DNA from: Candidatus Methanomethylicia archaeon
GTDB taxonomy: Archaea > Thermoproteota > Methanomethylicia > Nezhaarchaeales > B40-G2
NCBI GenBank assembly: GCA_029259155.1
Contig: JAPDJI010000024.1
Location: 1 to 15,391, forward strand
Reading direction: 5' to 3'
Length of the DNA stretch: 15,391 nucleotides
The position numbers and the translations under genes were made by a program. The notes below the pieces were generated by a model. The model ran no database searches. It was not told the DNA's origin and was given only the letters and a program-made list of their open reading frames with translations. Below are positions 1-12,140 of the stretch, one piece after another; position 1 is the first letter of the stretch, and each line of letters opens with the position of its first letter.

Positions 1-762
1 ATCGTGGATACATGGTGGCAGACCGAGACCGGAGGTATTCTAATAAGCTCTTTGCCGGGGATAGGCCCCATCATACCCACGGTGGCTGGTAGGAGCTTTC
101 CAGGCACCAAACACCTCATCTTAGATGAGGAGGGTAGGCCAGCACCCATGGGTGAGGAGGGCTACCTAGTCCAAATTCCTCCCTTCGCTCCAGGCATGCT
201 TAGAGGTATATGGGGAGACCCTAAGAGGTACGTGGATACCTACTTCTCCCAGTTTGGGCCTGAATACTACTTTACCGGCGACGGGGCTAGGATGATGGAA
301 GGGGAGGCCTTCAGGATAATAGGTAGGTTAGACGACGTGTTGAAAGTGGCTGGGCATAGGTTATCGACGGCTGAGCTTGAAAACGCGATAGCCAGCCACC
401 CTAAAGTAGCTGAAGCTGCTGTGGTGGGCGTACCCCACGAGGTTAAGGGAGAGGTGCCGGTAGCCTTCGTTATACTCAAGGCAGGCGTGGAGCCTACTCC
501 AGAGCTTGAGAGAGAGCTGGTCAAGAAGGTGGATGAGGCCATCGGCCCCATAGCTAGGCCTGAACGCGTAGTGTTCGTGACCGACGTCCCGAAGACGAGG
601 AGCGGCAAGATCATGAGGAGGATCCTGCGTAGATTGCTGCGCAATGAGCCTTTAGGCGACGTCACCACTTTAATGAACCCTGAGGTTGTCGAGGAGCTTA
701 AGAGCCTAGTAGGCTATAGGGGTAGCCGGGGGCTTCTCCTTGAAGGTGGAGGTGGCTGGTAA
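1..762 (+). CDS. acs: Acetyl-CoA synthetase (AMP-forming acetate--CoA ligase), 5'-truncated by the window edge
   Basis: Frame is open from base 1 (IVDTWWQTETGG). Diagnostic Acs motifs DTWWQTETGG, YFTGDGA, GRLDDVLKVAGHRLSTAE and PKTRSGKIMRR. Stop TAA at 760-762. Confidence 0.95.
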   Translation: MVDTWWQTETGGILISSLPGIGPIIPTVAGRSFPGTKHLILDEEGRPAPMGEEGYLVQIPPFAPGMLRGIWGDPKRYVDTYFSQFGPEYYFTGDGARMMEGEAFRIIGRLDDVLKVAGHRLSTAELENAIASHPKVAEAAVVGVPHEVKGEVPVAFVILKAGVEPTPELERELVKKVDEAIGPIARPERVVFVTDVPKTRSGKIMRRILRRLLRNEPLGDVTTLMNPEVVEELKSLVGYRGSRGLLLEGGGGW

Positions 763-1291
763 AACCTTCGAGCTGGCTCAGGGGGACATAACGGAGCTTA
801 CCGTAGACGCCATAGTCAACGCTGCTAACGAGCTCTTGAAGCTAGGTGGAGGAGTGGCAGGCGCTATTAGGCGTAAAGGAGGCCCAAAGATACAGGAGGA
901 ATGTGATAGGATACGTTACTGCCCTGTAGGTAGCGCTGTGATAACTACAGGCGGTAATCTCAAGGCAAGCTACGTTATCCACGCTGTAGGTCCAAGGCAG
1001 GGGGATAGCGACGTGGAAGGCAAGCTTAGAAGCGCTACGCTGAGCAGTTTAAGGCTAGCCGACGAATATAGGCTGCGTAGCATAGCTTTCCCGGCTATCT
1101 CCACAGGTGCCTTTGGCGTGCCCTTGGAGGTATGCGCAGACGTAATGATACCAGCCATACTGGACTACCTAAGCAAGGACACTGGGCTTAAGAGGGTGGT
1201 TCTATGCCTCTATAGGAATGAGGCTTACAACGTGTTCGCTGAGGCTTTAAAGAAACACGCTGAAGCTAGGGGGCTTAAGGTGGAGGAATGA
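740..1291 (+). CDS. Macrodomain protein (O-acetyl-ADP-ribose deacetylase / ADP-ribosylhydrolase, MacroD/YmdB type)
   Basis: Motifs GDIT, AIVNAAN, GGGVAGAI, VIHAVGP and AFPAISTGAFG. TTG start after GGGGG. Overlaps acs by 23 bp. Confidence 0.93.
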   Translation: MKVEVAGKTFELAQGDITELTVDAIVNAANELLKLGGGVAGAIRRKGGPKIQEECDRIRYCPVGSAVITTGGNLKASYVIHAVGPRQGDSDVEGKLRSATLSSLRLADEYRLRSIAFPAISTGAFGVPLEVCADVMIPAILDYLSKDTGLKRVVLCLYRNEAYNVFAEALKKHAEARGLKVEE

Positions 1292-1302
1292 AAACGTTAC
1301 GC

Positions 1303-1308
1303 TTTAAT
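1303..1308 (+). promoter_or_regulatory. Putative TATA box of a leaderless transcript starting near ATG 1333
   Basis: TTTAAT lies 30 bp upstream of the ATG, and no SD motif precedes the ATG. Confidence 0.5.
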
Positions 1309-1332
1309 CCAGCGCCTTTACCGTCCATCTAG

Positions 1333-2166
1333 ATGACCGAGCTCCTCCTGTTTTTTAGGCCTAGAAGGTTAAGGTTGGCTAATAGGCAGGCCGCAGTAAA
1401 CCTTTACTCGGCTGCTTTAACCCTAGGCTCCGACCTATTATTGATCGACCTCCCTGAAGGCATGGAACCCTTCCTATCTTGGCCTCAGCTCTCCTCAGCT
1501 TCCACCATCCTCGAGGCCGCTGTGGAGGCTGGTGTACTGCCAGCCAGCTCCTCCATGTTAAGGTCTCTTGAACCCTTAGTGGAGGGTGTGATGAAGGCTA
1601 AGCGCCAACTCGACGTGGAGGTGCGCTGCTACGCAGATCCTTCGTTGATGAAGGATGACCACGCCCTGTCCATGGAGGTCCCTAGACTACTACTTAGAGC
1701 CTCGCTGAGCAGCTTCCTAGAGAGAGACCTTAAGGAATGGCTTGACCTAGTTGAGAGGCGTAGGATGCTAGCTCACAGACACCTTCAATCCTCAGTGGGC
1801 AAAGTAGCCTCTCTAGCGCTTAAAGCTAAACGCCCCATCTGTCTAGCAGGCTTAGAGGCGTGGGAGCTAGCTAAACAGCTTAGAGAGGTCGGCTTCAAGG
1901 TTCAATTAAGGTCGGCTGGGCTACCCTACCTACATACTCCTCTGGAGGTCTTAGAGAAGCTTCACTCCGGAGGCTTATTGACGCAGGGGTTACTGGAGGA
2001 GTTGGTGAAGGAGCAGCTAAGCTACGTCAAGGAGTACGTGATGAAGCATGAAGGCGTAGACGAAGCTCACGCCACCTGGACTTTGAGTAAGGCTCCTTGG
2101 CTTCTCTGCTTCAAAGCTAAGCTTTATCCAGGTTCAGGCTCCTCTCCTCCTAAATGTACAGATTAG
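1333..2166 (+). CDS. Hypothetical protein, 277 aa
   Basis: Long ORF with codon usage like its neighbours and a TATA-like box at -30. No catalytic motif recognised. Confidence 0.8.
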   Translation: MTELLLFFRPRRLRLANRQAAVNLYSAALTLGSDLLLIDLPEGMEPFLSWPQLSSASTILEAAVEAGVLPASSSMLRSLEPLVEGVMKAKRQLDVEVRCYADPSLMKDDHALSMEVPRLLLRASLSSFLERDLKEWLDLVERRRMLAHRHLQSSVGKVASLALKAKRPICLAGLEAWELAKQLREVGFKVQLRSAGLPYLHTPLEVLEKLHSGGLLTQGLLEELVKEQLSYVKEYVMKHEGVDEAHATWTLSKAPWLLCFKAKLYPGSGSSPPKCTD

Positions 2167-2261
2167 TCGTCGACGAGGAGAAATGTAGAGGTTGCGGAGC
2201 CTGTAAATACCTGATCTACTGTCCAAGCTCTAAGAGCTGTATAGGGATTTCCTGGACGTGA
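2154..2261 (+). pseudogene. Truncated 5' end of a 4Fe-4S (ferredoxin-domain) protein gene
   Basis: Manual translation from ATG 2154: MYRLVVDEEKCRGCGACKYLIYCPSSKSCIG|ISWT*. It has a VDEEKCxGCGAC cluster motif and a second CIG.. motif cut short. TTTATC at 2123-2128 (-31) could be its promoter. Confidence 0.75.
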
Positions 2262-2398
2262 TGATCATAGACGAGGTGGACGCTACTCTCAAGCCTAGGA
2301 TTGAAGGGTTAAGCATCGGGGTGGTCACGGCTCCTACGTTGATGAAGAGTCTAGAGGATAAGGTTAGGCTCGCTAAGATAGTCTTAAGCTTACGATGA
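2234..2398 (+). pseudogene. cofD: 3' remnant of 2-phospho-L-lactate transferase (F420 biosynthesis)
   Basis: Manual translation: ELYRDFLDVMIIDEVDATLKPRIEGLSIGVVTAPTLMKSLEDKVRLAKIVLSLR*. This fits the CofD C-terminal pattern YxDFLDxxVIDxxD...TxMxxxEDKVRLA as I recall it. An in-frame TAA lies at 2231-2233, so the rest of the gene is absent. Confidence 0.75.
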
Positions 2399-2704
2399 CA
2401 GCTCTTGGAGGAGGGCTGAGAGGTACTCCTTAAACCTCCTAAGTATGGCCCTGCCCTGCTCAGTCATCGAGTACTCCTTGATCTTCCTACGACCCCTATT
2501 AAGCCACTTCCCCTTAACGTAGCCCTTCAGCTCAAGCTCCTTGAGGGCGGGGTAAAGCAGGCTAGGCCCTACGCTCCTACCGGTCAGGCGCTTAATCTCC
2601 GACATTAAGCTATAGCCGTGGCGCTCCCCTTTCTCTAAGAGCCCTAGTATAATGGGCTTAACGAGGCTTCTAGAGAGGGGCTTAAGGAGCTCCTCCTCGA
2701 ACAA
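2390..2704 (-). CDS. PadR-family transcriptional regulator
   Basis: ILGLL...HGYSLM...GPSLLYPALKELELKGYV...W...RRKIKEYSMTEQG is the PadR winged-HTH signature. TTG start after GGGGG. Overlaps the upstream gene by 23 bp. Confidence 0.93.
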   Translation of the reverse strand: MFEEELLKPLSRSLVKPIILGLLEKGERHGYSLMSEIKRLTGRSVGPSLLYPALKELELKGYVKGKWLNRGRRKIKEYSMTEQGRAILRRFKEYLSALLQELSS

Positions 2705-4262
2705 TTAAACCCCCTACTTGTGCGGTTTGAGTAATAGCTAGCCTCCGTTTAAAGGCTTTAGCCGCTTTCCGCGACACGTAAACCTTGATGGCCCTCGCCA
2801 GCCACCTGATAAAGGCTCCTGCGAGCGGGCCTAGGTAACTGGAGTAGTCGTCGGCTAGCTCCACCAGCCACTTAAGGTTATGCTCCAACACCACCCTATA
2901 CAGCTCCCAGTGGTGGGGACCAGCGTCCTCCAGCATCCTCATCGCTTTATGGTCCTTCGACCCTGGGGGAGGCACGTAGAGGAGGGGGACTATGAAGCTC
3001 TTGTAGGGCTTTAAGCGCTCCACGAGCTCGACGGTATCCATCACGTCGTCGACGGTCTCTCCGGGTAGGTTGATTATCAAGGTGGCGCAGGGTATCCAGT
3101 TGTTGTCGACGCTTATAGCGAAGGACTGTTCAACCACCTCGGGCCAGTCCTTGGGCTTAAACGGGTAGGGCTTCATGTACATGTGCCTTTCCATAAGCCT
3201 AGGGCTGCCGGTCTCAATGCCCGTCTGGTAGCCCATCCACCTGGTCTTCGTCAGCCCCAGGAGCTCACTTAACTCCTCGATTAGCTTAGGGTGGCTCGCT
3301 ATCGAGGAGAGGGCCGCGTGGCTGATGCCTACGTTCTCAACTCCAGGTACGCCCAGCACCTTCTTGAAGAGCTCCACCACCTTGCCTGCCTTGACCTCTA
3401 GGGCTGTGCCGCCATACCTCAGGGCGTCCTCGGCGTGAAGGCATATCGTGCGTTTGCCGAACCTTACGTTCACCTCAACGTCGGCTAAGATATCGTCTAG
3501 AGGCCTATGGCGGAGCCTCCTCAGCGTGGGTAAGCAGAATTTACATCCACGCCCACACCCCCTAGACGCCTCTACGAGCCCTCCTACTGTAGCCCCTAGA
3601 AGCCTAGGTATCTGTCTCGGAGTCGGAGTCTCACTGGGCGGCACCTTCACTGTGCATGGCGTCTTAAGGGAGCCATCCATTAGGCCCCGGAACACCCTAG
3701 GCGCTACGAGCTCCGCCTCCCCGTCAACCACTACGTCTATGCCTAGGGCGGCCATGTCCTTTAAGCTCAGCTGCCAGGCCCCAGGCCCCCCGACGACCAC
3801 TTTAGCTCCTCTCCTCCTCTCCTCCTGGATGGACCTGGAGGTTAAGAGCTCCCTAAACTTCCAGGCAGACATGGGCTCCTCGTGGATCACCCCGTAGGGC
3901 CCTGCCAGCGTGGAGGATGAAGGCCCAAGCCCAAGCGGGTCGTTGGTGGAGACCCCTATTACCTTGGTCTCTGAGCCTATAACCTTGGGCAGCGAGTCGG
4001 GGGTAGCTACGGCGACCTCTTCCCTCTTAACTACGCCAGCCTCTACGAGCGTAGCCTCCACCCTCCTTAGGCCGTGGGGGGCTAGTAGGGCCCTCCCCTC
4101 TTTATCGGACGGCACGGGCTTGGCTATGAAGTTGAAGAGAATCGAGGGATGTAGCAGCGGGAACCCTTTCTTAGGGGCGGTGGTCATGAAGCCTAGGAAG
4201 AGCCCGCCAAAGTAGTCGCTCATCAAGGTTCTATCGGCGGTTAAGACCACCTTGAAGCCCAT
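2682..4262 (-). CDS. Radical SAM enzyme with a B12-binding-like N-terminal domain, GDGT ring synthase (GrsA/GrsB) family-like
   Basis: CxxxCxxC motif (RGCGRGCKFC), VVVGGPGAWQ, DVVVDGEAE and GIETGSPRL. The N-terminal LTADRTLMSDY..FLGF..P and APHGLRRVEA, and DPLGLGPSSST, resemble Sulfolobales Grs proteins as I recall them. Confidence 0.85.
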   Translation of the reverse strand: MGFKVVLTADRTLMSDYFGGLFLGFMTTAPKKGFPLLHPSILFNFIAKPVPSDKEGRALLAPHGLRRVEATLVEAGVVKREEVAVATPDSLPKVIGSETKVIGVSTNDPLGLGPSSSTLAGPYGVIHEEPMSAWKFRELLTSRSIQEERRRGAKVVVGGPGAWQLSLKDMAALGIDVVVDGEAELVAPRVFRGLMDGSLKTPCTVKVPPSETPTPRQIPRLLGATVGGLVEASRGCGRGCKFCLPTLRRLRHRPLDDILADVEVNVRFGKRTICLHAEDALRYGGTALEVKAGKVVELFKKVLGVPGVENVGISHAALSSIASHPKLIEELSELLGLTKTRWMGYQTGIETGSPRLMERHMYMKPYPFKPKDWPEVVEQSFAISVDNNWIPCATLIINLPGETVDDVMDTVELVERLKPYKSFIVPLLYVPPPGSKDHKAMRMLEDAGPHHWELYRVVLEHNLKWLVELADDYSSYLGPLAGAFIRWLARAIKVYVSRKAAKAFKRRLAITQTAQVGGLIVRGGAP

Positions 4263-4270
4263 AGCGCCTC

Positions 4271-4310
4271 AGATATATCCAGAACTAGATATATCTCTTT
4301 CTGGAGATAA
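4271..4310. promoter_or_regulatory. Tandem palindromic operator over the grs-like/padR promoter
   Basis: Perfect inverted repeat AGATATATC-N8-GATATATCT at 4271-4296. An overlapping degenerate copy ATATATC-N8-GAGATAA lies at 4289-4310. The array is 9-48 bp upstream of ATG 4262. Confidence 0.7.
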
Positions 4311-4342
4311 GCGATAACTTATTAGACTGCGCGTAGCTTAAT

Positions 4343-4615
4343 CTACATGGCTATCAGCGTTATCCTCCTAGCCTTCTCTTCAAACTTCGAGAAGCCTACT
4401 CCCACCAGCGAGGGAGCTATGGAGGCCGCGAAGAGGATGTTCACAGCTGTAGCTATAGCTATTAAGGCTTCTCTAAGCGTTTTAGCCTCCTAGAGAGGGT
4501 AGGCGACCATGAAGCAAGCTAGCATCCAAGCTCCGCCGATGAAGAGGAGGACCAAGCTCACCGCTGTAAACCAGGGTGAGCGGCTTAGCCTCCATCCATA
4601 TCCCTTTAATAATGC
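4343..4615 (-). pseudogene. Probable degraded membrane-protein (permease-like) gene fragment
   Basis: One frame reads ALLKGYGWRLSRSPWFTAVSLVLLFIGGAWMLACFMVAYPL*EAKTLREALIAIATAVNILFAASIAPSLVGVGFSKFEEKARRITLIAM*. Two TM-like segments are separated by an in-frame TAG (4492-4490), and there is no credible start codon. Confidence 0.4.
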
Positions 4616-4667
4616 CTATACTCAAGGCATATGTGAGCCTTGGCTAGGTTACGTAGAGGTGGTGGCT

Positions 4668-5366
4668 TTGTCTACAGACTTGGAGAAGCTACTGGATACC
4701 GCTCTTTCCGAAGGGCGTGCATGGCTACTTGAACCTGAAGCTAAGCAGGCCTGTAGGTTGATGAACATAGCTACGGCTAGGTTTAAGGTGGCGCATAGCC
4801 TAGACGAAGCCTTAACGGCCGCTGAGGAGATCGGCTACCCCGTCGTTTTGAAGGTGGTGTCGCCCGACATACTGCATAAAAGCGATGTGGGCGGCGTGGT
4901 CTTAGATGTTAAGGGCCCTGAAGCCTTGAAGGCTTCCTACAATGCCCTGCTAAGCAGGGTGAAGGAGGCTAAGCCGGAAGCTAAGATCGTAGGCGTGCTC
5001 GTCGAGGAGATGTTGAGGCCGAGCCTCGAGGTCGCCTTCGGCCTCGTCAGAGACCCTCAGTTCGGCCCAGCGGTAATGTTTGGGCTTGGAGGAATCTACG
5101 TGGAGCTCTATAGAGATGTAACCTTCCGGATAGCTCCAATCAGCGTGGAGGAGGCCCAGGAGATGATAAGGGAGGTCAAGGTCTACCGCTTATTGACGGG
5201 CTACCGCGGCATGCCTAAGCTGGACATCGAGGCCTTAGTGGACATAGCATTGAAGCTTTCGAAGCTAGGGGTCGAGCACTCTAAGGTGAGGCAGGTCGAC
5301 TTAAACCCGGTAATGGTATATGAGAAGGGAGCTATAGTGGCCGACGCAAGGATGCAGGTGGGCTAG
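4668..5366 (+). CDS. acdB: ADP-forming acetate/acyl-CoA ligase beta subunit (ATP-grasp)
   Basis: LLEPEAK, IGYPVVLKVVSPDILHKSDVGGV (phosphorylatable His), RDPQFGPAVMFGLGG and VDLNP. Start re-assigned from 4509 to TTG 4668 (SD GAGGTG upstream), giving 232 aa, a typical beta-subunit size. Confidence 0.9.
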   Translation: MSTDLEKLLDTALSEGRAWLLEPEAKQACRLMNIATARFKVAHSLDEALTAAEEIGYPVVLKVVSPDILHKSDVGGVVLDVKGPEALKASYNALLSRVKEAKPEAKIVGVLVEEMLRPSLEVAFGLVRDPQFGPAVMFGLGGIYVELYRDVTFRIAPISVEEAQEMIREVKVYRLLTGYRGMPKLDIEALVDIALKLSKLGVEHSKVRQVDLNPVMVYEKGAIVADARMQVG

Positions 5367-7096
5367 GAAGAAGTAGCTATGGGCGCAACTAGGTCAGGTG
5401 CGACGAGGTCTAAGCCTGTATACTTAGCTACTCGTTCATCGATCTCTAAGGCGTTTAGGAACCTCCTATACTTCCACAACAGGTAGTTGGCGCGTTCAAG
5501 TTTAAGCTGCCTCACATAGGTCTCCATCTGCTCCTCGGTGTAGTAGCGTTTAAGGTCAAACCTGGAGATATCCACGTCCTCCACGTACTTAGGCACCTCC
5601 ACGCCGAAGTAAGGCTCCTCAACCCACTCGATCGTGCCCCTGAGGATGCCTCTAATGATAGCTGCCGTCTCCCTTATCTCCACCCTAGTCACCCTCTGCT
5701 TCACGTATACCTTATACCCGTTCTTGACCATGACCTCCCCTATGCCGCCTGTATTGAGCAGGTAGCACTGTACCTTGTCCCTGTTGAGCCTTAGGAAGTT
5801 GTAGAACCATACGCCTTCCTCCACCGGGTCCCCTACGATGAACGGGTTGGTGCCCACCACCCTCACCGACTCCCCTATCCTACGCGGGTCGCTAGCCGCC
5901 GTCTCTATGGACTCGCCTAGCATGAAGGTGGCTGCCGCCTGCTCCACGGTCAGCCTCGATATTATGGGCACCACGGTGTTCCTCCTGGTGATGAAGATGA
6001 TCACCATGCCATCCAGCTCGCTCAGCGGCGGCAGGTTTATCGACGGGCTTAGGTAGGACTGGTCTAGGTCAGACCTAGGGAAGACTCCTCTACCGTTACC
6101 GGTGAGGGTATCGTCTAGGAAGTCGACGGCCCCTGTGTAGTCGACCATCACATTCTCGAACACAGCGTTGCGCTTCGTAGCGGCGTTCCATATCAGCGGC
6201 TGGTTGATAGGGTCTATGTCCGTCTTCAAGAAGAACCCGTTCTCCGTCCCCAGCGCTGAGCCGTCCATCTTCAGGAACACTACGTCGTCCTGCACTATCT
6301 CGATGCCTTCACCATCCTCCGGGTTCAAGCCGTGGTGGTGACAGGTGTGCGTTGTCTTACCCGTAGCTGAAAGCCCGAAGAGGAGCATGGAGTATCTCCT
6401 AAGCCTGCCGTCAGGGCTTCTAGCCCTAACGATCTTGGCCCCTGCGTGTACGCCTAGCATGCCCCTCTGCTTGGCGTACCACATGGCCATCCTGAGGAAG
6501 CCCTTCTTAGCCTCCCCGAAGTAGTCGCTGCCTAAAACGTAGGTTACGCCTATCTCTGGGAAAACGAGGATTTGACGGTCCTTCTCATGCCACTCAGGTA
6601 TGAAGATTAAGTAGAGCTCAGGGCTTCCACTAGCCATCCCCCTGCTCTTATCGAAGAGCAGCACGTCTAACATGTAAGCTAGCCTAACGCAGTCTTTACG
6701 CTGCAGCGACACGTACATCGTGCATTTAGGGGTAAACTCGTCGTTATTCCCCATGATCTTCTCCACGCATATCAGAGGAGTTCTCTTAAGGTACCTCTGC
6801 ACCTTCTCAACCGTCTCAGGAGCTTCCTTCACGAGCTCCCTCTGCCTATCGCTTAGGGCATCGTAATCCATCACCCTTGGGCTACCTATGTAAACCGTGA
6901 GCGCAGCGCTACGGTTCCTAACGTTAGTGGAGAACACCAAGTTTCCGTACACGGTCCTGATACCGTGCTGCTCAGCCATGGCTCTGAGGGTCTCGGAGTC
7001 CACGTGTATCACGTTGGGTTGATGATGAAGCTGCCTGACATCCTCAAGTACGCTTTCCAGCAACGTGCCAGCGTCATCCCAGATGGCCTTAACCAC
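5363..7096 (-). CDS. pckA: Phosphoenolpyruvate carboxykinase, ATP-dependent family
   Basis: YFGEAKKG, HAG, P-loop FGLSATGKTT, metal-binding QDD, GNGRGVFP and YLLNTG motifs. GTG start with AGGAG SD. Confidence 0.88.
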   Translation of the reverse strand: MVKAIWDDAGTLLESVLEDVRQLHHQPNVIHVDSETLRAMAEQHGIRTVYGNLVFSTNVRNRSAALTVYIGSPRVMDYDALSDRQRELVKEAPETVEKVQRYLKRTPLICVEKIMGNNDEFTPKCTMYVSLQRKDCVRLAYMLDVLLFDKSRGMASGSPELYLIFIPEWHEKDRQILVFPEIGVTYVLGSDYFGEAKKGFLRMAMWYAKQRGMLGVHAGAKIVRARSPDGRLRRYSMLLFGLSATGKTTHTCHHHGLNPEDGEGIEIVQDDVVFLKMDGSALGTENGFFLKTDIDPINQPLIWNAATKRNAVFENVMVDYTGAVDFLDDTLTGNGRGVFPRSDLDQSYLSPSINLPPLSELDGMVIIFITRRNTVVPIISRLTVEQAAATFMLGESIETAASDPRRIGESVRVVGTNPFIVGDPVEEGVWFYNFLRLNRDKVQCYLLNTGGIGEVMVKNGYKVYVKQRVTRVEIRETAAIIRGILRGTIEWVEEPYFGVEVPKYVEDVDISRFDLKRYYTEEQMETYVRQLKLERANYLLWKYRRFLNALEIDERVAKYTGLDLVAPDLVAPIATSS

Positions 7097-7179: not shown

Positions 7180-7647
7180 ATGCTAAGAAAACTGGACCGG
7201 GAGATCATAGTTAAACTGATGGAGGATTCACGTTCCCCCATATACAGGATAGCTAGAGAACTGGGGGTTAGCAGACAGGCTGTGGCGAAGAGGCTTGAGA
7301 AGCTGAAGCGAGAAGGCATGGTCAAGTTCACGGCTATACCCGACCCTAAGTCCCTCGGCTTAATGTTGAAGGCCTACATCCTCGTCAGGGTGGCTCCAGG
7401 AGACGAGGTGAGGAGCAGGTTTGAGAATAAGGTTAAACGGTTGAGGCAGGTGTCGCAGGTGCACTACGTGTACGGACGGTTCGACGTCCTCATAGAGGTG
7501 CTGGTTAAAGACCACGACGAGCTCTCCAGGCTGGTCAAATCGCTACATAGGCTTAAAGGCGTACTGGAGACGGAGACCTATATTGTTAGGGAGCCTATCA
7601 AGGACAGGTTCTTGGACCCCTTACTTCGAGCCCTCAAGGCTTCTTAG
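7180..7647 (+). CDS. Lrp/AsnC-family transcriptional regulator
   Basis: N-terminal HTH LDREIIVKLMEDSR..IARELGVSRQAVAKRLEKL..G and C-terminal RAM domain VYGRFDVL...GVLETETYIV. Confidence 0.93.
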   Translation: MLRKLDREIIVKLMEDSRSPIYRIARELGVSRQAVAKRLEKLKREGMVKFTAIPDPKSLGLMLKAYILVRVAPGDEVRSRFENKVKRLRQVSQVHYVYGRFDVLIEVLVKDHDELSRLVKSLHRLKGVLETETYIVREPIKDRFLDPLLRALKAS

Positions 7648-8409
7648 AAAGCTCCTCAAAGCCTCGTTAAACTCCTTAGGCTTCTCCAGCATGGAGGCGT
7701 GGCCAGCGCCTTCCACCACCACAAGCCTCGAGCCAGCTATGTGTTTATGTAGGTATTCAGCCCACCTAACCGGCGTCAACTTGTCCTCGCTTCCCACCAG
7801 TATCAGCGTGGGTACCTTCACCTCGCTCAGCCTATCCCTAAAGTCGAAGGCGTTACATGCCTTAAAGTTCCTGTAGGCTACGTGGAGCGGCACCTTCATC
7901 ATCTCGGCTATGGAGGCTTCCAGGAGCGCCTTATCGACCGTGGAAGCGAAGGACATGGGTGCTATCACCTCCTCCACGGTCCTCCTATAATCCCTACTCA
8001 ACCCCTCCAAGATCTCGGGGAGGACGCCTAGCTTAGCCCCTGTATTGGCGAGGGCCAGCCCTTTAACCCTCCTAGGCGCTTCGGCGGCGAGGGTCATGGC
8101 TATAGCTCCACCCATGGAGTGCCCGACCACCACCGCCTCCTCTACGCCTAAAACCTCCAAGAAACTATTCATTAAACCGGCTAGGTAGGCTATGTCCACC
8201 TCTCCTTGAAGGTCGCTTGACCCTCCATGCCCAGGGAGGTCAGGCGCTAAAGCCTCGAAGCCCTCCTCCTCAGCCATCCGTAGCTGGAAGACCCAAGCCA
8301 TGCTGGAGCCCAAGGCGCCATGAATAAAGAGGACCTTCATCGAGCCCTGCCCAGCTACACGGTAGCTTAGCTTAACTCCCTGCACGGTAACCTCCTTCAA
8401 AGGCCTCAC
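7621..8409 (-). CDS. Alpha/beta hydrolase (esterase/lactonase-like)
   Basis: FIHG, DLPGHGGS, nucleophile elbow GHSMGG, acid GSEDKL and His in AGHA form a complete catalytic triad. GTG start overlaps the upstream TGA (GTGA). Confidence 0.92.
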   Translation of the reverse strand: MRPLKEVTVQGVKLSYRVAGQGSMKVLFIHGALGSSMAWVFQLRMAEEEGFEALAPDLPGHGGSSDLQGEVDIAYLAGLMNSFLEVLGVEEAVVVGHSMGGAIAMTLAAEAPRRVKGLALANTGAKLGVLPEILEGLSRDYRRTVEEVIAPMSFASTVDKALLEASIAEMMKVPLHVAYRNFKACNAFDFRDRLSEVKVPTLILVGSEDKLTPVRWAEYLHKHIAGSRLVVVEGAGHASMLEKPKEFNEALRSFLRSLEGSK

Positions 8410-8834
8410 CTAGTGTAGCTGGTGGTGGGTCCTGGCTCCTCACGTCTTCCAGAAGGTGTAGGCGGAGGGCCTATCGGAGGTATGGGTGGAGGTATGTTGA
8501 GGCTCCTCGAGATAATGATGGCCTCCGTGATACATGCCGTTGAGACCGCCTGTATAACCTGAGGGGGAGGGCGGCGGCTACGTTTCTGCTCCTCCATAAC
8601 CGCCTCCACCTCCTCCTCGGTCCCAGTTACCATAGCCTTCCCCTTGATGCTTATGTGGGCTATTGGAGGCGAGTAGTTTATGGTGAACATGAAGGGAGCC
8701 TCCAGCCCGCTAGCGGTCCTCGTGGCCTCCATCACGTTGATGTTTATGGATAGGTTAGCCTTAGCGGGCAGAGGCTTATCGTAGTCCCAAAGCCTCTCCC
8801 CGGAAAGACTAATGATGCGTATGTCTACTCTCAA
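8406..8834 (-). CDS. Hypothetical protein, 142 aa, with a Pro-rich tail
   Basis: Tightly coupled between two clear genes (2-bp gap upstream, 4-bp overlap downstream). Alternating beta-strand pattern, then helices, then IPPPIPP. Confidence 0.8.
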   Translation of the reverse strand: MRVDIRIISLSGERLWDYDKPLPAKANLSININVMEATRTASGLEAPFMFTINYSPPIAHISIKGKAMVTGTEEEVEAVMEEQKRSRRPPPQVIQAVSTACITEAIIISRSLNIPPPIPPIGPPPTPSGRREEPGPTTSYTR

Positions 8835-8836
8835 AC

Positions 8837-9877
8837 CTAAGCCCCCGTTATTGAACGCATCTTCTCTACTATAGCTTCCGCCATATCTAAGGTGCTCGAT
8901 CCTCCGCCTAGGTCTGGCGTAACCCTTCTCCGCTCGCGCAGCACTTGGTTCACCGCTTCTTCCAGCAGCTTAGCTGCCTTCTTCTCCCCTAGCCAGTCCA
9001 GCATCATCTTCGAGGCTAAGATAGCGCCGCATGGGTTAGCAACTCCTCTACCAGCATACTTAGCAGCGGTGCCGTGGACAGGCTCAAACATGGCGTAGCG
9101 CTCCCCTATATTGGCTGAGGCAGCTACGCCGAGCCCACCCGTAACGCCTGCAGCTGCATCTGACAGGATATCTCCGAAGAGGTTGGTGGTTACCAATACG
9201 TCGAAGCTCTGTGGACGCCTCGAGATCGCGTAGGCTGCGGCGTCCACGAACATCTCCTCGCACTCCACGTCAGGGTAGTTCTTAGCCACCTCCAAGCATA
9301 CTTGTCGAAAGAGGCCGCAGGTCTCCTTCAATATGTTGGCTTTATGCACCACCGTCACCTTCCTCCTACCCTGCTTCCTCGCAAGGTCGAAGGCAAACCT
9401 AGCAATACGCTCAGACCCCTTCTCGGTTATGAGGCGTAGGCTAATGGCTCCTCCATCCAACCTATACTCGTGGCCAGCGTAGAGGCCCTCGGTGTTTTCG
9501 CGGACGATAACCATGTCCACGCCTTTATGAACCGCCTCCACCCCCTCTCTAGACTTGAAGGGGCGGACGTTAGCGTAGAGGTCGAGGCTCGCCCTAAGCG
9601 TAACCGCGACGCTCCTGTAGCTTCTAGGCCCTGTAGGCGTGGTGGTGGGGCCTTTCAGCAGTGCTCTACAAGACTTGATCAGCTCAAGGTCCTCCTCGCT
9701 TATCTGAACCCCTGTCTTCTCCCAGCGTTTCATCCCTGCCTCCACGTACTCGAAGTTAAACCCAACCTTAGGGTAGACGTCCTCCAGCCCCTTAAGCACC
9801 TTGAGCGCAGCCTCCACGACTTCAGGGCCCACCCCGTCGCCTGGAATGACAGCTACCCTATACTGCGCCAGCTCCAC
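8837..9877 (-). CDS. Isocitrate/isopropylmalate dehydrogenase family protein (IDH-like motifs, NADP-type signature)
   Basis: PGDGVGPEV, LKGPTTTP, LRASLDLYANVRP, VRENTEGLY, VHKANILK, NLFGDILSD and FEPVHGTAAKYAG motifs. Confidence 0.92.
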   Translation of the reverse strand: MELAQYRVAVIPGDGVGPEVVEAALKVLKGLEDVYPKVGFNFEYVEAGMKRWEKTGVQISEEDLELIKSCRALLKGPTTTPTGPRSYRSVAVTLRASLDLYANVRPFKSREGVEAVHKGVDMVIVRENTEGLYAGHEYRLDGGAISLRLITEKGSERIARFAFDLARKQGRRKVTVVHKANILKETCGLFRQVCLEVAKNYPDVECEEMFVDAAAYAISRRPQSFDVLVTTNLFGDILSDAAAGVTGGLGVAASANIGERYAMFEPVHGTAAKYAGRGVANPCGAILASKMMLDWLGEKKAAKLLEEAVNQVLRERRRVTPDLGGGSSTLDMAEAIVEKMRSITGA

Positions 9878-9931: not shown

Positions 9932-10426
9932 CTATGTCAGCTTAATCACCCACTCGCAGGAGACTTCGCTTAACGGGGCTGGGCGCGGACCGTAGGTGCA
10001 CGTAGCTCTACCCTTCAGCCCTAAGCCCTCCACGAAGCCTTCGAGCACCTTGGACGTGAACCTCGAGCAGTCATAGCTCTCCGCCCTCCACTTCACCAGG
10101 GCGTTCTTGGCGGAGCAGCCATAGATCTTGAGCCTCACCCCATCGCCTTCCCCCTCCAGCTCTATGTGTTCAAGCAGCGCCCAGTGTGAAACCTTGAAAG
10201 CCTCTAGGAGCCGCTGTAAACCCTTCAGCTTCTTGGGGAGAAGCCTAGCCAACCCTTCACCCTCCCTGAAGCCAACCCTCCAGCCAAGCCTAAGCCACTC
10301 CTCGCTTTCGAAGAACTCTGAGCCGTAGCGCTTAACTATCAACGCTATGGTCCTCCACCATCCATAGGTACAAGCAAGCCCTAGGTTCCTGATGGCCTCC
10401 TCCATGAAGCGCCGAGACCTACGCAT
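9932..10426 (-). CDS. Hypothetical Cys-containing protein, V4R/DUF6125-like ligand-binding fold (tentative)
   Basis: 164-aa ORF with the pattern SHWA..IE..VRLKIYGCSA..YDC..LEGF..ATC..P..SCEW, which recalls V4R/ATC-hydrolase-like domains. Confidence 0.7.
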   Translation of the reverse strand: MRRSRRFMEEAIRNLGLACTYGWWRTIALIVKRYGSEFFESEEWLRLGWRVGFREGEGLARLLPKKLKGLQRLLEAFKVSHWALLEHIELEGEGDGVRLKIYGCSAKNALVKWRAESYDCSRFTSKVLEGFVEGLGLKGRATCTYGPRPAPLSEVSCEWVIKLT

Positions 10427-10571: not shown

Positions 10572-12140
10572 TTGAGGAAACCTTGGCTCAAGAACTGGCC
10601 TGACTACGTGCCTAGAACCATAAAGTACCCTAGAGCCCCTCTCCACTGGCTACTGACCAACGCGGCTGAGAGGTTTAAGGAGGACATCGCTCTGCTCTAC
10701 GAAGACCGCGCCTTCACCTTCGCTGAGCTGGCTTCTAAGGCCGCTAGCTTCGCTGGCTGGCTAGCTAACATGGGGGTCTCTAAGGGGCTTAGGGTAGCCC
10801 TCTACATGGCCAACTCCCCCTTCTTCGTCATAGGCTACTACGGGTCCTTGATGGCCGGCGCCACCGTGGTCGCCTTAAACCCTCTGTTAAAGGAGAGGGA
10901 GGCTATCTACCAGCTGGAGGACGCTGAGGTAGAGGTCATCGTGGCTGACGAGGTAGGCTACGCTACGTTAAAAAGGATAGAGCAGGCGGTCAAGGTAAGC
11001 AAACTAGTATTGACGGAGACATCCTCCAGCGAGGCTCCAAGCCTAGAAGGCATTGCTGCGCTGGGCCTTAAACGCCCTGAGGTAAAGGTGAAGCCTGAGG
11101 AAGACGTAGCCGTGATCCAGTACACGGCAGGCACCACGGCTGAGCCTAAAGGAGTGATGTTGACCCACTACAACCTGCTCTCCAACGCCATAGCCATAGC
11201 CAAAGTAACCCTCCTTAGACGCCATGAAGTCCAGCTAGGCGCGTTGCCCCTCTACCACTCCTACGGTATGACCAACGTCATGAACGCTTCGCTATACGTA
11301 GGCGCCTCGGTAGCCTTAATGAAGCGCTTCGACGTTGAGGCTGCGCTGCGCATCGTAGAGAAGCATAGGGTCAACGTGTGGTTCGGCGTGCCGGCCATGT
11401 TTATCGCCGCGCTGCACCACCTAAAGACCTGCCCCCACGACTTAAGCTCGCTACGCTTCTGTAATAGCGGTGGAGGCCCCATCGCCAGCGAGGTGGTAGA
11501 GGAGTTCGAGAAGCTTACGGGCGTGCTCCTCATGCAGGGCTATGGTTTAAGCGAAGCCTCGCCCGTCACCCACTCCAACATCCCCGTCAAGGGCTTGGTC
11601 AAGAACAACTCGGTGGGCATGCCCCTACCGGATACTGAGGCTAAGATCGTCGACCTAGACCTAGGCTTCAAGGAGCTACCTCCAGGCGAGGTGGGAGAAC
11701 TGGTGGTTAGAGGCCCGCAGGTCATGAAGGGGTACTGGAAGAAGCCCATCGAGACCGCTGAGGCCTTGAGGAATGGCTGGCTTTACACAGGCGACATAGC
11801 CTGGATGGATGAGGAAGGCTACTTCTACGTCGTTGACCGTAAAAAAGACGTGATCAAGTATAAGGGGTACTCCATAAGCCCAAGGGAACTCGAGGACGTG
11901 CTCTACGCACACCCAGCCGTGAAGGAGTGCGCCGTGGTCGGTAAGCCTGACCCCATCGCTGGCGAGGTGCCTAAAGCCATCGTAGTGTTGAGGGAAGGCT
12001 TCCAGACAACCCCGGAGGAAATCATGAAGTTTGTGGAGGAGAGGGTAGCGCCGTACAAGAAGATACGGGAAGTAGAGTTTAGGGAAGAGCTGCCTAAAAG
12101 CGCCATAGGCAAGATATTGAGGAGGCTTCTACGAAGCTAG
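10572..12140 (+). CDS. Long-chain fatty acid--CoA ligase (AMP-forming, FadD-like)
   Basis: N-terminal KPWLKNWP, P-loop QYTAGTTAEPKG, QGYGLSEASP, GWLYTGDIA, VDRKKD and LPKSAIGKILRR. Confidence 0.92.
   Translation: MRKPWLKNWPDYVPRTIKYPRAPLHWLLTNAAERFKEDIALLYEDRAFTFAELASKAASFAGWLANMGVSKGLRVALYMANSPFFVIGYYGSLMAGATVVALNPLLKEREAIYQLEDAEVEVIVADEVGYATLKRIEQAVKVSKLVLTETSSSEAPSLEGIAALGLKRPEVKVKPEEDVAVIQYTAGTTAEPKGVMLTHYNLLSNAIAIAKVTLLRRHEVQLGALPLYHSYGMTNVMNASLYVGASVALMKRFDVEAALRIVEKHRVNVWFGVPAMFIAALHHLKTCPHDLSSLRFCNSGGGPIASEVVEEFEKLTGVLLMQGYGLSEASPVTHSNIPVKGLVKNNSVGMPLPDTEAKIVDLDLGFKELPPGEVGELVVRGPQVMKGYWKKPIETAEALRNGWLYTGDIAWMDEEGYFYVVDRKKDVIKYKGYSISPRELEDVLYAHPAVKECAVVGKPDPIAGEVPKAIVVLREGFQTTPEEIMKFVEERVAPYKKIREVEFREELPKSAIGKILRRLLRS

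Follow-up and report, generated by a model that had tools for sequence, protein, structure and literature searches.

Widely used palaeotemperature proxies build on the ring number of GDGTs, which is also a main route by which archaea adapt their membranes. In the 15,391-nucleotide stretch of a Candidatus Methanomethylicia archaeon genome analyzed here (hereafter, the window), a gene resembling the known GDGT ring synthases (Grs) runs into a gene encoding a PadR-family regulator, which raises the question of whether ring synthesis is controlled by a transcriptional switch of its own, as a preliminary description of this DNA had proposed. A small, conserved regulator gene beside a ring-synthase homolog offers a testable handle: a single protein, ~60 bp of promoter DNA, and the enzyme itself. 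Concerning precedents, the accessible text of PMC10465181 reports that grsB expression changes with pH and temperature and names no grs regulator, and our literature searches returned no paper linking PadR to GDGT genes, in agreement with the initial impression that no regulator of such a kind had been described. Our verdict is that the enzyme family is known and that the PadR regulator module is a candidate, as yet undescribed. The genes of the locus comprise the following features:

2682..4262, minus strand: grs-like gene encoding P0001 (526 aa, ATG start), from the ORF, translation, Pfam, BLASTP, trees and AF2 model
2390..2704, minus strand: padR gene encoding P0002 (104 aa, TTG start), a PadR-family winged-helix regulator of subfamily-2 size
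2682..2704, minus strand: 23 bp shared by the end of grs (3') and the start of padR (5'), from ORF coordinates
3534..3557, minus strand: codons for C236, C240 and C243 of the CX3CX2C radical SAM cluster motif, from translation and alignment

The ORF coordinates confirmed the overlap of 23 bp between the 526-aa radical SAM gene and the PadR gene that had been reported initially. This overlap leaves no space for a separate promoter between the genes, and grs and padR are probably co-transcribed as a two-gene operon. A G-rich stretch, GGGGGT, lies a few bases ahead of the padR TTG start. Comparison with related loci revealed the same grs/padR overlap in locus L033 and a 1-bp overlap in locus L038.

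The family membership of P0001 was examined through domain profiles, pairwise alignments, and structure prediction. Pfam searches retrieved Radical_SAM above the cut-off (E 3.6e-10) and B12-binding below it (E 0.0068; 16.7 bits against a cut-off of 32.1). In BLASTP comparisons, P0001 aligned with GrsA at 38% identity (E 7e-96, query residues 3-465 of 526, ~88% of the length) and with GrsB at 33% identity (E 7e-78, query residues 3-464, ~88% of the length), while GrsA and GrsB share 32% identity, each of them being nearer to P0001 than to the other. The references for GrsA and GrsB were P0123 and P0124 of genome G102, which was recognized as Sulfolobus acidocaldarius-like by a 58/58 match to Sac7d (PDB 1azp) and by gene position. 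The locus tags of Sac7d and Sac7e served as background to this assignment. Grs homologs have been defined by >=70% coverage, >=20% identity, and E <=1e-40 against both GrsA and GrsB (in the accessible text of Blum et al., bioRxiv 10.1101/2022.08.15.504015), and P0001 lies within these bounds for both references. The motifs quoted in the preliminary description (LTADRTLMSDY, FLGF, APHGLRRVEA, GPSSST, GGPGAWQ, GIETGSPRL, and KPYPF..WPEVVE) were all present in the translation, and C236, C240, and C243 did not vary across alignment A1, whose 30 sequences include GrsA and GrsB.

The AF2 model of P0001 (pLDDT 91.6) displays strands and helices at residues 5-206, a barrel at 229-428, and helices at 449-522, which correspond to a predicted Rossmann-like N-terminal domain, the barrel of the radical SAM core, and a C-terminal part built of long helices. 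Its top fold matches were MgmA, MiaB, AprD4, TsrM, OxsB, and TokK, the nearest structures being cobalamin radical SAM enzymes and MiaB. Models of GrsA and GrsB are described with a CX3CX2C motif, a Rossmann-like N-terminal domain of B12 type, a partial TIM barrel, and a C-terminal helix (PMC13459092, in the part consulted), and the same motif and three-part architecture are found in the predicted structure of P0001. On these sequence comparisons P0001 belongs to the Grs family; its modeled N-terminal domain appears to be of B12 type, and cobalamin binding itself is putative.

Three other identities were considered for P0001. Gms, described in the accessible part of PMC11214058 as an AhbD-like radical SAM/SPASM protein with an N-terminal extension of ~100 aa, was rejected as P0001 produced no AhbD or SPASM match; Tes was rejected as NF045702 was not among the matches and no PDB tetraether synthase matched at E <=1; and a methylthiotransferase identity was also rejected.

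Phylogenetic analysis placed P0001 more precisely. In the careful tree, the clade harboring P0001 (99/96) and the GrsA clade are sisters (88/83), GrsB branches closer to the root, and the P0001, GrsA, and GrsB clades recur in trees of 94 and 137 rows. Rooted on distant B12-domain proteins of Sulfolobaceae, a root whose position is not secure, the trees nest P0001 between the characterized GrsA and GrsB, the latter being basal. The GrsA clade sensu stricto (100/100) excludes P0001, which also falls outside the GrsB (Saci_0240-type) clade. The preliminary placement in or near the Grs clade is thereby upheld by both the homolog thresholds and the nesting within the family, with the refinement that P0001 lies in a sister clade of GrsA and is neither GrsA nor GrsB proper. 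The P0001 clade spreads mostly through anaerobic archaea, namely (names per the sources) Nezhaarchaeales, Bathyarchaeia, Methanomethylicaceae, Archaeoglobales, Odinarchaeia, Baldrarchaeia, and Hadarchaeales; family f2, from the same order as the window, harbors a true GrsA-type gene instead (L169). Archaeoglobus profundus is reported to possess two "GrsA homologs" and to make rings (PMC11214058 and its supplement, in the accessible portions). Among the 120 listed relatives of the Archaeoglobales member, A. profundus was not named and Ferroglobus placidus was. A large sister clade of GrsA in anaerobes is hereby delineated, and its product range needs checking before its members are counted as "GrsA" in environmental surveys.

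With regard to the regulator, P0002 matched the Pfam PadR profile (PF03551) with E 4.6e-16 and 59 bits against a cut-off of 27, the domain covering residues 19-89 of 104, and its best PDB sequence matches, short PadR proteins among them, were 3l7w, 5x11, 4ejo, 5zhc, and the 3f8b/3f8c group. PadR subfamily 2 (PadR-s2) proteins are described as ~110 aa long, with known operators formed by 4-bp inverted repeats 8-10 bp apart (PMC3506622, in the part consulted), and the 25 grs-linked PadR ORFs range from 104 to 137 aa. By size, Pfam domain, and PDB matches, P0002 can be assigned to subfamily 2. The translation does not contain the tryptophan of the C-terminal helix which, according to the same part of PMC3506622, is the drug-binding residue in LmrR, and direct ligand sensing by P0002 is therefore uncertain. 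The window's genome encodes only three PadR genes above the cut-off.

The distribution of the grs-PadR pair was surveyed across archaeal genomes. P0002-type PadR genes adjoin grs in 18/63 loci of the P0001 clade, spread over 8/20 family codes, although the first count overstates the independent events since same-family genomes are kin. An adjoining PadR was found in 2/121 other Grs-family loci and in none of the 66 named GrsA-type loci (L076-L141) that served as GrsA-clade set and as control, the best of which is 88% identical to the GrsA-type query and among which there is no S. acidocaldarius record. Four arrangements were observed: PadR overlapping downstream, convergent, divergent, and as a divergent PadR pair upstream. 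The grs-padR synteny, whose survey the preliminary description suggested, is thus conserved across family codes and arrangements but patchy within the clade. All 16 grs-linked PadRs tested from other genomes had P0002 as their best match in the window's genome, and the genome-wide best match of P0002 was the grs-adjacent gene in 5/5 genomes tested; the grs-linked PadRs are reciprocal best hits and orthologous. As a separate observation, genes found beside grs encode CofD, NfeD, arginyl-tRNA synthetase, LarA, a Na/H exchanger, isocitrate/isopropylmalate dehydrogenase, a small radical SAM protein, a glycosyltransferase, and an amine-oxidase-type flavoprotein.

It is conceivable, albeit unlikely, that P0001 is a Grs ring synthase and the PadR exerts no control over grs, acting instead in autoregulation or on distant targets, with their adjacency reflecting shared inheritance or co-transfer as a cassette. 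No PadR was found in the fetched flanks (1.5-2.5 kb; three had <410 bp upstream) of 45/63 clade loci, including 3/5 of the window's own family, and the linkage is accordingly dispensable. Aligning the upstream regions by eye, we could not define an operator shared across lineages; the canonical ATGT-N8-10-ACAT operator does not occur in the grs promoter, its one match in the window (7363-7379) lying inside another ORF; and grsA of Sulfolobales is reported to appear constitutive, not differentially expressed, in the accessible text of PMC10465181. Such a decoupled PadR is, however, difficult to reconcile with the adjacency of grs and PadR in four arrangements and 8 family codes while all other neighbors change, there being no other conserved grs neighbor. 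Moreover, the 23-bp overlap implies that whatever controls padR also controls grs in the window. In four divergent f4 loci (L042, L044, L167, and L203), an ORF in convergent orientation comes after the PadR gene, which therefore stands alone, leaving grs as the only gene with a promoter region in common with PadR. Finally, in five genomes with unlinked grs, the best matches of P0002 were weak or absent.

As for the reaction catalyzed, P0001 most likely forms cyclopentane rings in GDGTs, judging from its homology to both characterized synthases. It is the only Grs-family member found in the window's genome, which also harbors a Tes gene (C3:68974-70482; NCBIfam NF045702, 659 bits against a cut-off of 450). 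A rather improbable alternative is that P0001 performs another tetraether modification (a ring placed elsewhere, GMGT preference, or desaturation-like or other C-H chemistry) under a PadR engaged in an amphiphile or membrane-stress response. Its clade is distinct from both characterized enzymes, and the genes of the small sister clade share operons with another B12 radical SAM gene. Among homologous lipid enzymes of the B12 radical SAM type, divergence in function into methylases and the desaturase Ted is reported (bioRxiv 10.1101/2025.10.20.683597), and ammonia oxidizers are reported to possess Grs homologs of unknown role (bioRxiv 10.1101/2022.08.15.504015), both in the accessible parts of these preprints. 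The window's genome also contains a Gms-like gene (C2:116389-117867) exhibiting the AhbD/SPASM and N-terminal-extension pattern. Against this different chemistry, P0001 is nearer to GrsA and to GrsB than those two are to each other, and the two ring synthases bracket it in the rooted trees. The methylase/desaturase group, in turn, is Gmm-like rather than Grs-like, and the HpnJ/BchE-like B12 radical SAM gene of the window's genome failed to score at E 0.001 when P0001 was the query. As indirect evidence on whether P0001 is nearer to Gmm (Moek5-like; the Gmm/Cgm/Pgm/Ted group) or to Grs, its search against G102 retrieved only GrsA, GrsB, and one partial 401-aa match.

Further evidence bearing on ring formation comes from Candidatus Methanosuratincola petrocarbonis, strain LWZ-6 of which is reported to contain GDGT-0 to -4 and ringed GMGTs (PMC12244365, in the accessible part). 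Genome G016 encodes a P0001-clade member, 53% identical to P0001, which is identical over 465/465 residues to a protein assigned by NCBI to this organism, the match between genome and organism being based on this one protein. It is the sole Grs homolog found in G016, and the occurrence of GDGT-1 to -4 in M. petrocarbonis together with a lone Grs homolog in the matching genome fits, as a correlation, ring synthesis by the P0001 clade. The matching genome has the grs/PadR pair in the divergent arrangement, and since LWZ-6 is a cultured methanogen that contains these lipids, the hypothesis is open to tests in vivo and not only in vitro.

In the region preceding grs, the following elements, none assigned to a strand, were detected:

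4288..4295: distal GATATATC box, spanning -26 to -33 relative to the ATG; probably the TATA box, half of the operator, or both
4272..4279: proximal GATATATC box, spanning -10 to -17 relative to the ATG; a candidate operator located after the TATA box and before the transcription start
4274..4309: extended imperfect palindrome with 19-nt arms, 84% complementary, its outer arms CCAGAA/TTCTGG placed around the distal box
4271-4282/4285-4296: palindrome arms of 12 nt, 92% complementary
4271 and 4287: direct repeat AGATATATC
4307..4322: ATAAG-N6-CTTAT, a second and smaller inverted repeat spanning -45 to -60 relative to the ATG
4276-4291: TATC-N8-GATA, formed by the inner halves of the GATATATC boxes, the sole such site in the window

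The palindrome array noted initially over the promoter was recovered as two exact GATATATC palindromes, 16 bp apart and 10-33 bp upstream of grs, with a longer palindrome overlapping them. GATATATC occurs twice in the window against 0.10 expected, a count reached in 4/200 shuffles, and 31 times in the 1.55-Mb genome against ~25 expected from composition; the exact pair at 4272/4288 is the only one separated by <40 bp in the whole genome. A relaxed search for the double box (one mismatch per box, 6-10 nt spacer) retrieved two sites in the 1.55-Mb genome, the second inside an ORF, and hence no second target outside ORFs. The double box is also conserved in L033 and in the promoter of the second grs paralog of the L033 genome, L176, the 16-bp spacing being the same in both and roughly so in L038. 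Similarly, L033 carries the CCAGAA/TTCTGG outer arms and an identical ATAAG-N6-CTTAT repeat, conservation ending at about -85. In the divergent loci, the alignment by eye revealed AT-rich repeats 16-17 bp apart that we could not tell from paired TATA boxes.

The distal box, judging from its position, may be the TATA box, and the AT-rich boxes could be mere TATA elements. It is nevertheless very unlikely that the palindromes are promoter elements only (a TATA box plus an accidental copy), with the PadR acting as an activator or binding elsewhere, for instance at ATAAG-N6-CTTAT (4307-4322), because, although the distal box occupies what its location suggests is the expected archaeal TATA position, a second conserved inverted repeat lies upstream of the boxes, and the repeats of the divergent loci resemble paired TATA boxes, the exact duplicate 16 bp away is unique in 1.55 Mb, L033 and L176 show the same spacing and L038 a similar one, and the inner halves reproduce the 4-N8-4 geometry of known PadR operators.

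Taken together, we lean, by a narrow balance of the evidence, toward a Grs-family ring synthase whose gene is repressed along with padR through paired GATATATC boxes, with release by a ligand. In this model, the Grs enzyme would form cyclopentane rings, at most four as with GrsA, in GDGT (and GMGT) core lipids made by the Tes of the same genome. P0002, a putative small dimer of PadR subfamily 2, would bind the paired GATATATC palindromes (inner halves TATC-N8-GATA), thereby overlapping the TATA box and the stretch from the TATA box to the transcription start, and would repress the operon and so itself. P0002 would come off the DNA in response to a signal, for which a lipid intermediate or some hydrophobic or amphiphilic molecule is plausible, and ring synthesis would then rise. 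The binding of P0002 at the boxes, repression rather than activation, and the ligand are what we infer from the locus and its relatives. The initial suggestion that this PadR could be a dedicated switch thus held up: the linkage recurs, if patchily, the linked PadRs find each other as best hits in both directions, and this promoter is the sole site outside ORFs with the double palindrome. The PadR cannot be a general regulator of ring number, since S. acidocaldarius-type GrsA/GrsB loci do not have it.

More tentatively, and with somewhat less than even expectation, we propose that grs and its cognate PadR represent an ancient module, the first dedicated transcriptional switch for archaeal membrane-lipid cyclization, which would have been present near the base of the GrsA-sister clade and its small sister clade and been lost towards GrsA. 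Responding to a ligand that is membrane-active or derived from lipids, it would determine how many rings are made in anaerobic Thermoproteota and in the lineages with which they share genes. If true, ring indices from anoxic and hydrothermal sediments would in part reflect a chemical cue perceived by PadR, and not temperature or pH alone.

In comparison with known systems, P0001 shares with GrsA (Saci_1585, S. acidocaldarius) full-length homology, the N-terminal motifs, CX3CX2C, and the predicted three-part architecture, and it is the only family copy of its genome, as in many organisms with a GrsA-type gene; it differs in lying outside the GrsA clade proper, in its mostly anaerobic lineages, in its PadR neighbor, and in having an activity that is predicted. 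With GrsB (Saci_0240, S. acidocaldarius) it shares 33% identity over ~88% of its length, whereas GrsB belongs to a separate, more basal clade and is reported to add rings 5-8 to GDGT-4 (PMC13459092, in the part consulted); a sole Grs copy, as P0001 is, must start from GDGT-0 instead. P0002 resembles the PadR-s2 repressors (LmrR of Lactococcus lactis, bcPadR1/2 of Bacillus cereus, Rv3488, SMU.1704) in its size, its winged-helix domain, and a candidate operator built as a 4-bp inverted repeat with an 8-bp spacer. As described for LmrR and bcPadR1 in the accessible part of PMC3506622, its gene stands beside its presumed target, and by analogy autoregulation is likely. In contrast with these repressors, P0002 is archaeal, its half-sites are TATC/GATA instead of ATGT/ACAT, its C-terminal helix has no Trp, and what it presumably controls is a radical SAM enzyme that modifies lipids, not an efflux pump or a detoxifying enzyme. 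A parallel is found in the MarR-type regulators located by the GDGT methylase genes cgm and pgm (BldR2-like, TK0169-related), for which an amphiphile-induced response has been proposed, the link resting on gene neighborhood only (bioRxiv 10.1101/2025.10.20.683597, in the accessible part). Although those pairs join a MarR with a methylase and the present one a PadR with a Grs, in both a small ligand-sensing type of winged-helix regulator adjoins a B12 radical SAM lipid gene.

The grs-like gene, which encodes the 526-aa radical SAM protein P0001, and the padR gene, which encodes the 104-aa protein P0002, have 23 bp in common by their ORF coordinates, and several repeats lie upstream of the former:

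2682-4262, minus strand: grs-like ORF, 526 aa, ATG start
2390-2704, minus strand: padR ORF, 104 aa, TTG start
4271-4282/4285-4296: inverted repeat upstream of the grs-like gene, 12-nt arms, 92% complementary
4274-4309: longer overlapping palindrome upstream of the grs-like gene
4307-4322: second inverted repeat, ATAAG-N6-CTTAT, 45-60 bp upstream of the grs start, identical at the related locus L033
Upstream of the grs-like gene: direct repeat of AGATATATC

The overlapping pair and upstream palindromes of the preliminary description were confirmed by ORFs, Pfam, and a repeat search, and every motif quoted there was present in the 526-aa translation. In Pfam, P0002 matched PadR with 59 bits (cut-off 27) and P0001 matched Radical_SAM above the cut-off, along with a weak B12-binding match below it; no NCBIfam model came near its cut-off for P0001. 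The remaining ORFs annotated by Pfam (1-762, 740-1291, 4509-5366, 5363-7096, 7180-7647, 8837-9877, 10572-12140, and 12137-14584) are of ordinary metabolic and other types, comprising two AMP-binding acyl-CoA synthetase-type genes, one Macro-domain protein, an ATP-grasp_5 protein encoded divergently from grs, an ATP-type PEP carboxykinase, an Lrp/AsnC regulator, an isocitrate/isopropylmalate dehydrogenase, and a surface-type protein of 815 aa with M6-peptidase/CARDB matches; Pfam gave no match for ORFs 1333-2166, 8406-8834, and 9932-10426. Public metagenome runs, with hydrothermal vent and marine sediment as labels, contain DNA near-identical to positions 2300-4500; no RNA run was among the matches listed.

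Nearly the whole phylum carries the P0001 family, with a match at E <= 1e-10 in 359 of the 401 sampled genomes, and the window's genome (94% complete) has one copy. References for the GDGT ring synthases (Grs) GrsA and GrsB were drawn from G102, a single 2.2-Mb contig encoding a protein identical to Sac7d of PDB 1azp (58/58 residues). This genome has exactly two full-length P0001 homologs, at 1.354 Mb (505 aa, P0123) and 0.200 Mb (528 aa, P0124). Interpolation between its two 7-kDa protein genes, which we take to be Saci_0064 and Saci_0362, places Saci_0240 at ~200 kb, and because of the Sac7d identity and the gene positions P0124 was taken as GrsB and P0123 as GrsA. The assignment fits the published pattern, in which, according to the available part of the source, GrsA-type genes are single and GrsB-type genes are found where a genome has several copies (bioRxiv 10.1101/2022.08.15.504015). 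Pairwise comparisons gave 38% identity between P0001 and GrsA (E 7e-96), 33% between P0001 and GrsB (E 7e-78), and 32% between GrsA and GrsB (E 1e-68), so that P0001 passes the published Grs homolog thresholds against both enzymes.

Three trees (94 rows, 137 rows, and 47 rows with a careful search) gave the same clades, in which that of P0001 has an SH-aLRT support of 97 (99/96 in the careful tree) and is distinct from the GrsA clade (100/100). The careful tree places the two as sisters with moderate support (88/83), followed by a small three-row clade, beyond which lie two small lineages and a clade of multi-copy homologs, whose host genomes, judging from their size and copy number, appear to be ammonia oxidisers. 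GrsB adjoins the outgroup, and the root is insecure because this outgroup is distant. The initial placement in or near the Grs clade was upheld by both thresholds and trees: P0001, at 38% identity to GrsA, belongs to the sister clade of GrsA and stands outside the GrsA clade proper. By source names, the clade includes Nezhaarchaeales, Bathyarchaeia, Methanomethylicaceae, Archaeoglobales, Odinarchaeia, Baldrarchaeia, Hadarchaeales, and others. In relatives from the same order, those of family code f2, a true GrsA-type gene (L169) stands in place of the P0001 type, as if one type had replaced the other.

P0001 gave a confident AlphaFold model (pLDDT 91.6), in which a Rossmann-like N-domain is followed by a radical SAM barrel and by long helices at the C-terminus; all three cluster cysteines are invariant. 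Among solved structures, the closest in fold to this model are those of the cobalamin enzymes MgmA, TsrM, OxsB, TokK, and CysS, and also AprD4 and MiaB; no Grs structure was among the structural matches. Other tetraether-lipid genes of the window's genome (G000) lie outside the window:

G000:C3:68974-70482: tetraether synthase (Tes), NF045702 at 659 bits
G000:C2:116389-117867: AhbD-like radical SAM/SPASM gene, ~117-residue N-terminal extension
G000:C4:48081-49547: HpnJ/BchE-like B12 radical SAM gene, of a broad type including lipid methylases

P0001 is ruled out as Tes, which is a separate gene, and as the GMGT synthase Gms, which is AhbD-like (PMC11214058) as P0001 is not; the second and third genes listed, the remaining alternative set aside, occur in the genome alongside it. 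The AhbD-like gene fits the pattern published for Gms, and judging from these genes the organism probably makes both GDGTs and GMGTs.

A functional anchor is offered by G016, a single 1.5-Mb contig in which searches with P0001 and with GrsA returned the same sole gene. Its product is a P0001-clade member, 53% identical to P0001 and identical over 465/465 residues to an NCBI protein named Ca. Methanosuratincola petrocarbonis. The accessible text on strain LWZ-6 of this species (PMC12244365) reports a 1.54-Mb genome and lipids comprising GDGTs with 0-4 cyclopentane rings, GMGTs with <=2 rings, and methylated GMGTs, a ring range that is, as a correlation, the output expected of a GrsA-like enzyme acting alone. 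Taken jointly, Grs-family membership and ring chemistry are likely for P0001, a new member of a known enzyme family whose clade deserves its own functional test.

The 401-genome sample yielded 63 P0001-clade loci in 62 genomes, with membership defined by the 137-row tree, and flanks of 1.5-2.5 kb were scanned for P0002 relatives. These were present at 18 of the 63 loci, in 8 of the 20 family codes, a count that includes kin genomes and is not one of independent cases; three clade loci have <410 bp of upstream sequence, where a divergent arrangement is not judgeable. The arrangements were as follows:

padR co-directional downstream, overlapping grs: L001 (the window locus), L033, L038
padR convergent with grs: L036, L039
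padR divergent, with an 8-141 bp gap where the ORFs separate (L050 overlaps): L037, L042, L044, L045, L047, L050, L052, L167, L203, L204
Divergent PadR gene pair upstream of grs: L208, L214, L224

The proposed conservation of the linkage stands, though patchily; most loci of the clade lack the link, which is therefore dispensable. Even so, it would be difficult to account for its reappearance in four gene arrangements unless the two genes were functionally connected. Since a convergent ORF follows the PadR gene at four divergent f4 loci (L042, L044, L167, and L203), this gene is a single-gene unit there, with a promoter region common only with grs. The remaining grs neighbors vary between lineages; at L037 (G172:C58, 3177-4508) the gene immediately downstream of grs encodes an amine-oxidase/phytoene-desaturase-type flavoprotein, and at L208 (G053:C27, 1251-2366) a family-2 glycosyltransferase separates the PadR pair from grs, both of which may be lipid-related.

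Among other Grs-family loci, PadR neighbors occurred at 2 of 121, both in the small next-branching clade, and at 0 of the 66 named GrsA-type loci; a profile from all 25 PadR ORFs gave no further match. The two loci have the layout padR<->padR-grs-(B12 radical SAM):

L160 (G176:C4), 265-4392: PadR pair, grs homolog, then HpnJ/BchE-like gene
L177 (G096:C15), 1-3959: the same order

The HpnJ/BchE-like gene (~440 aa) overlaps or adjoins the grs homolog, a layout suggestive of an operon that is flanked by PadR genes and serves two lipid modifications. A 2025 preprint describes a desaturase, Ted, adjoining a grs gene (bioRxiv 10.1101/2025.10.20.683597).

Best-match searches support orthology of the linked regulators. 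All 16 foreign grs-linked PadRs found by that stage had P0002 as best match in the window's genome, with its two PadR paralogs far behind, and the genome-wide best match of P0002 was the grs-adjacent gene in 5/5 genomes tested. In five genomes with PadR-free grs, the best P0002 matches were weak (2e-13 to 6e-5) or absent. Because only three PadR genes exceed the cut-off in the window's genome, we estimate the probability of chance adjacency at well under 1%.

The element GATATATC, its own reverse complement, occurs twice in the window (0.10 expected) and 31 times in the 1.55-Mb genome (~25 expected), and one copy by itself is thus hardly informative. The window pair, with its 16-bp spacing, is the only one <40 bp apart in the whole genome, and a relaxed double-box search gave one further match, inside an ORF. 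In gene sense the promoter reads CCAGAAAGA-GATATATC-TAGTTCTG-GATATATC-TGAGGCGCT-ATG, with the distal box at -33 to -26 from the ATG and the proximal box at -17 to -10. By position, the distal box would be the archaeal TATA box if the transcript had little or no leader, and a protein bound at the proximal box would block the polymerase. Together, the inner box halves make up TATC-N8-GATA, which occurs nowhere else in the window. Known PadR operators, described in the available part of PMC3506622 as ATGT/ACAT inverted repeats 8-10 bp apart, have the same geometry but different letters, and the canonical ATGT/ACAT motif is absent from the grs-like promoter.

Both boxes and their spacing are kept at L033 (Grs 94% identical to P0001), where upstream similarity stops at about -85, and in the promoter of L176, a second, PadR-free paralog (77% identical). 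These are the two grs paralogs of G248, the closest relative genome, which has padR beside one only. The shared boxes may reflect either a regulon of two promoters or promoter duplication. In L038, which belongs to a different family, GTATATG and GATATAT are separated by the same 16 bp, the PadR-free L034 and L035 of the window's own family have a single TATA-like element each, and no shared operator could be defined among divergent loci. We tentatively regard the double GATATATC box as a putative PadR operator, and consider control of grs by PadR rather probable.

Within the open literature, no paper linking PadR with GDGT was found among the matches listed, nor any mention of PadR in those on tetraethers, ring synthases, grsA, or Nezhaarchaeota. 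The available portions of texts on grs name no regulator of it, and that of Blum et al. (bioRxiv 10.1101/2022.08.15.504015) contains no word starting with 'regulat'. In S. islandicus, grsB responds to acid and cold whereas grsA does not, according to the accessible part of a study citing Yang et al. 2023 (PMC10465181). The grs-padR pair represents a local regulator module of known type, for a target process whose regulator was not found described in the open literature. Its nearest precedent is provided by the MarR-type regulators that adjoin the methylase genes cgm and pgm, for which the available text of Garcia et al. 2025 (bioRxiv 10.1101/2025.10.20.683597) proposes a response to amphiphiles.
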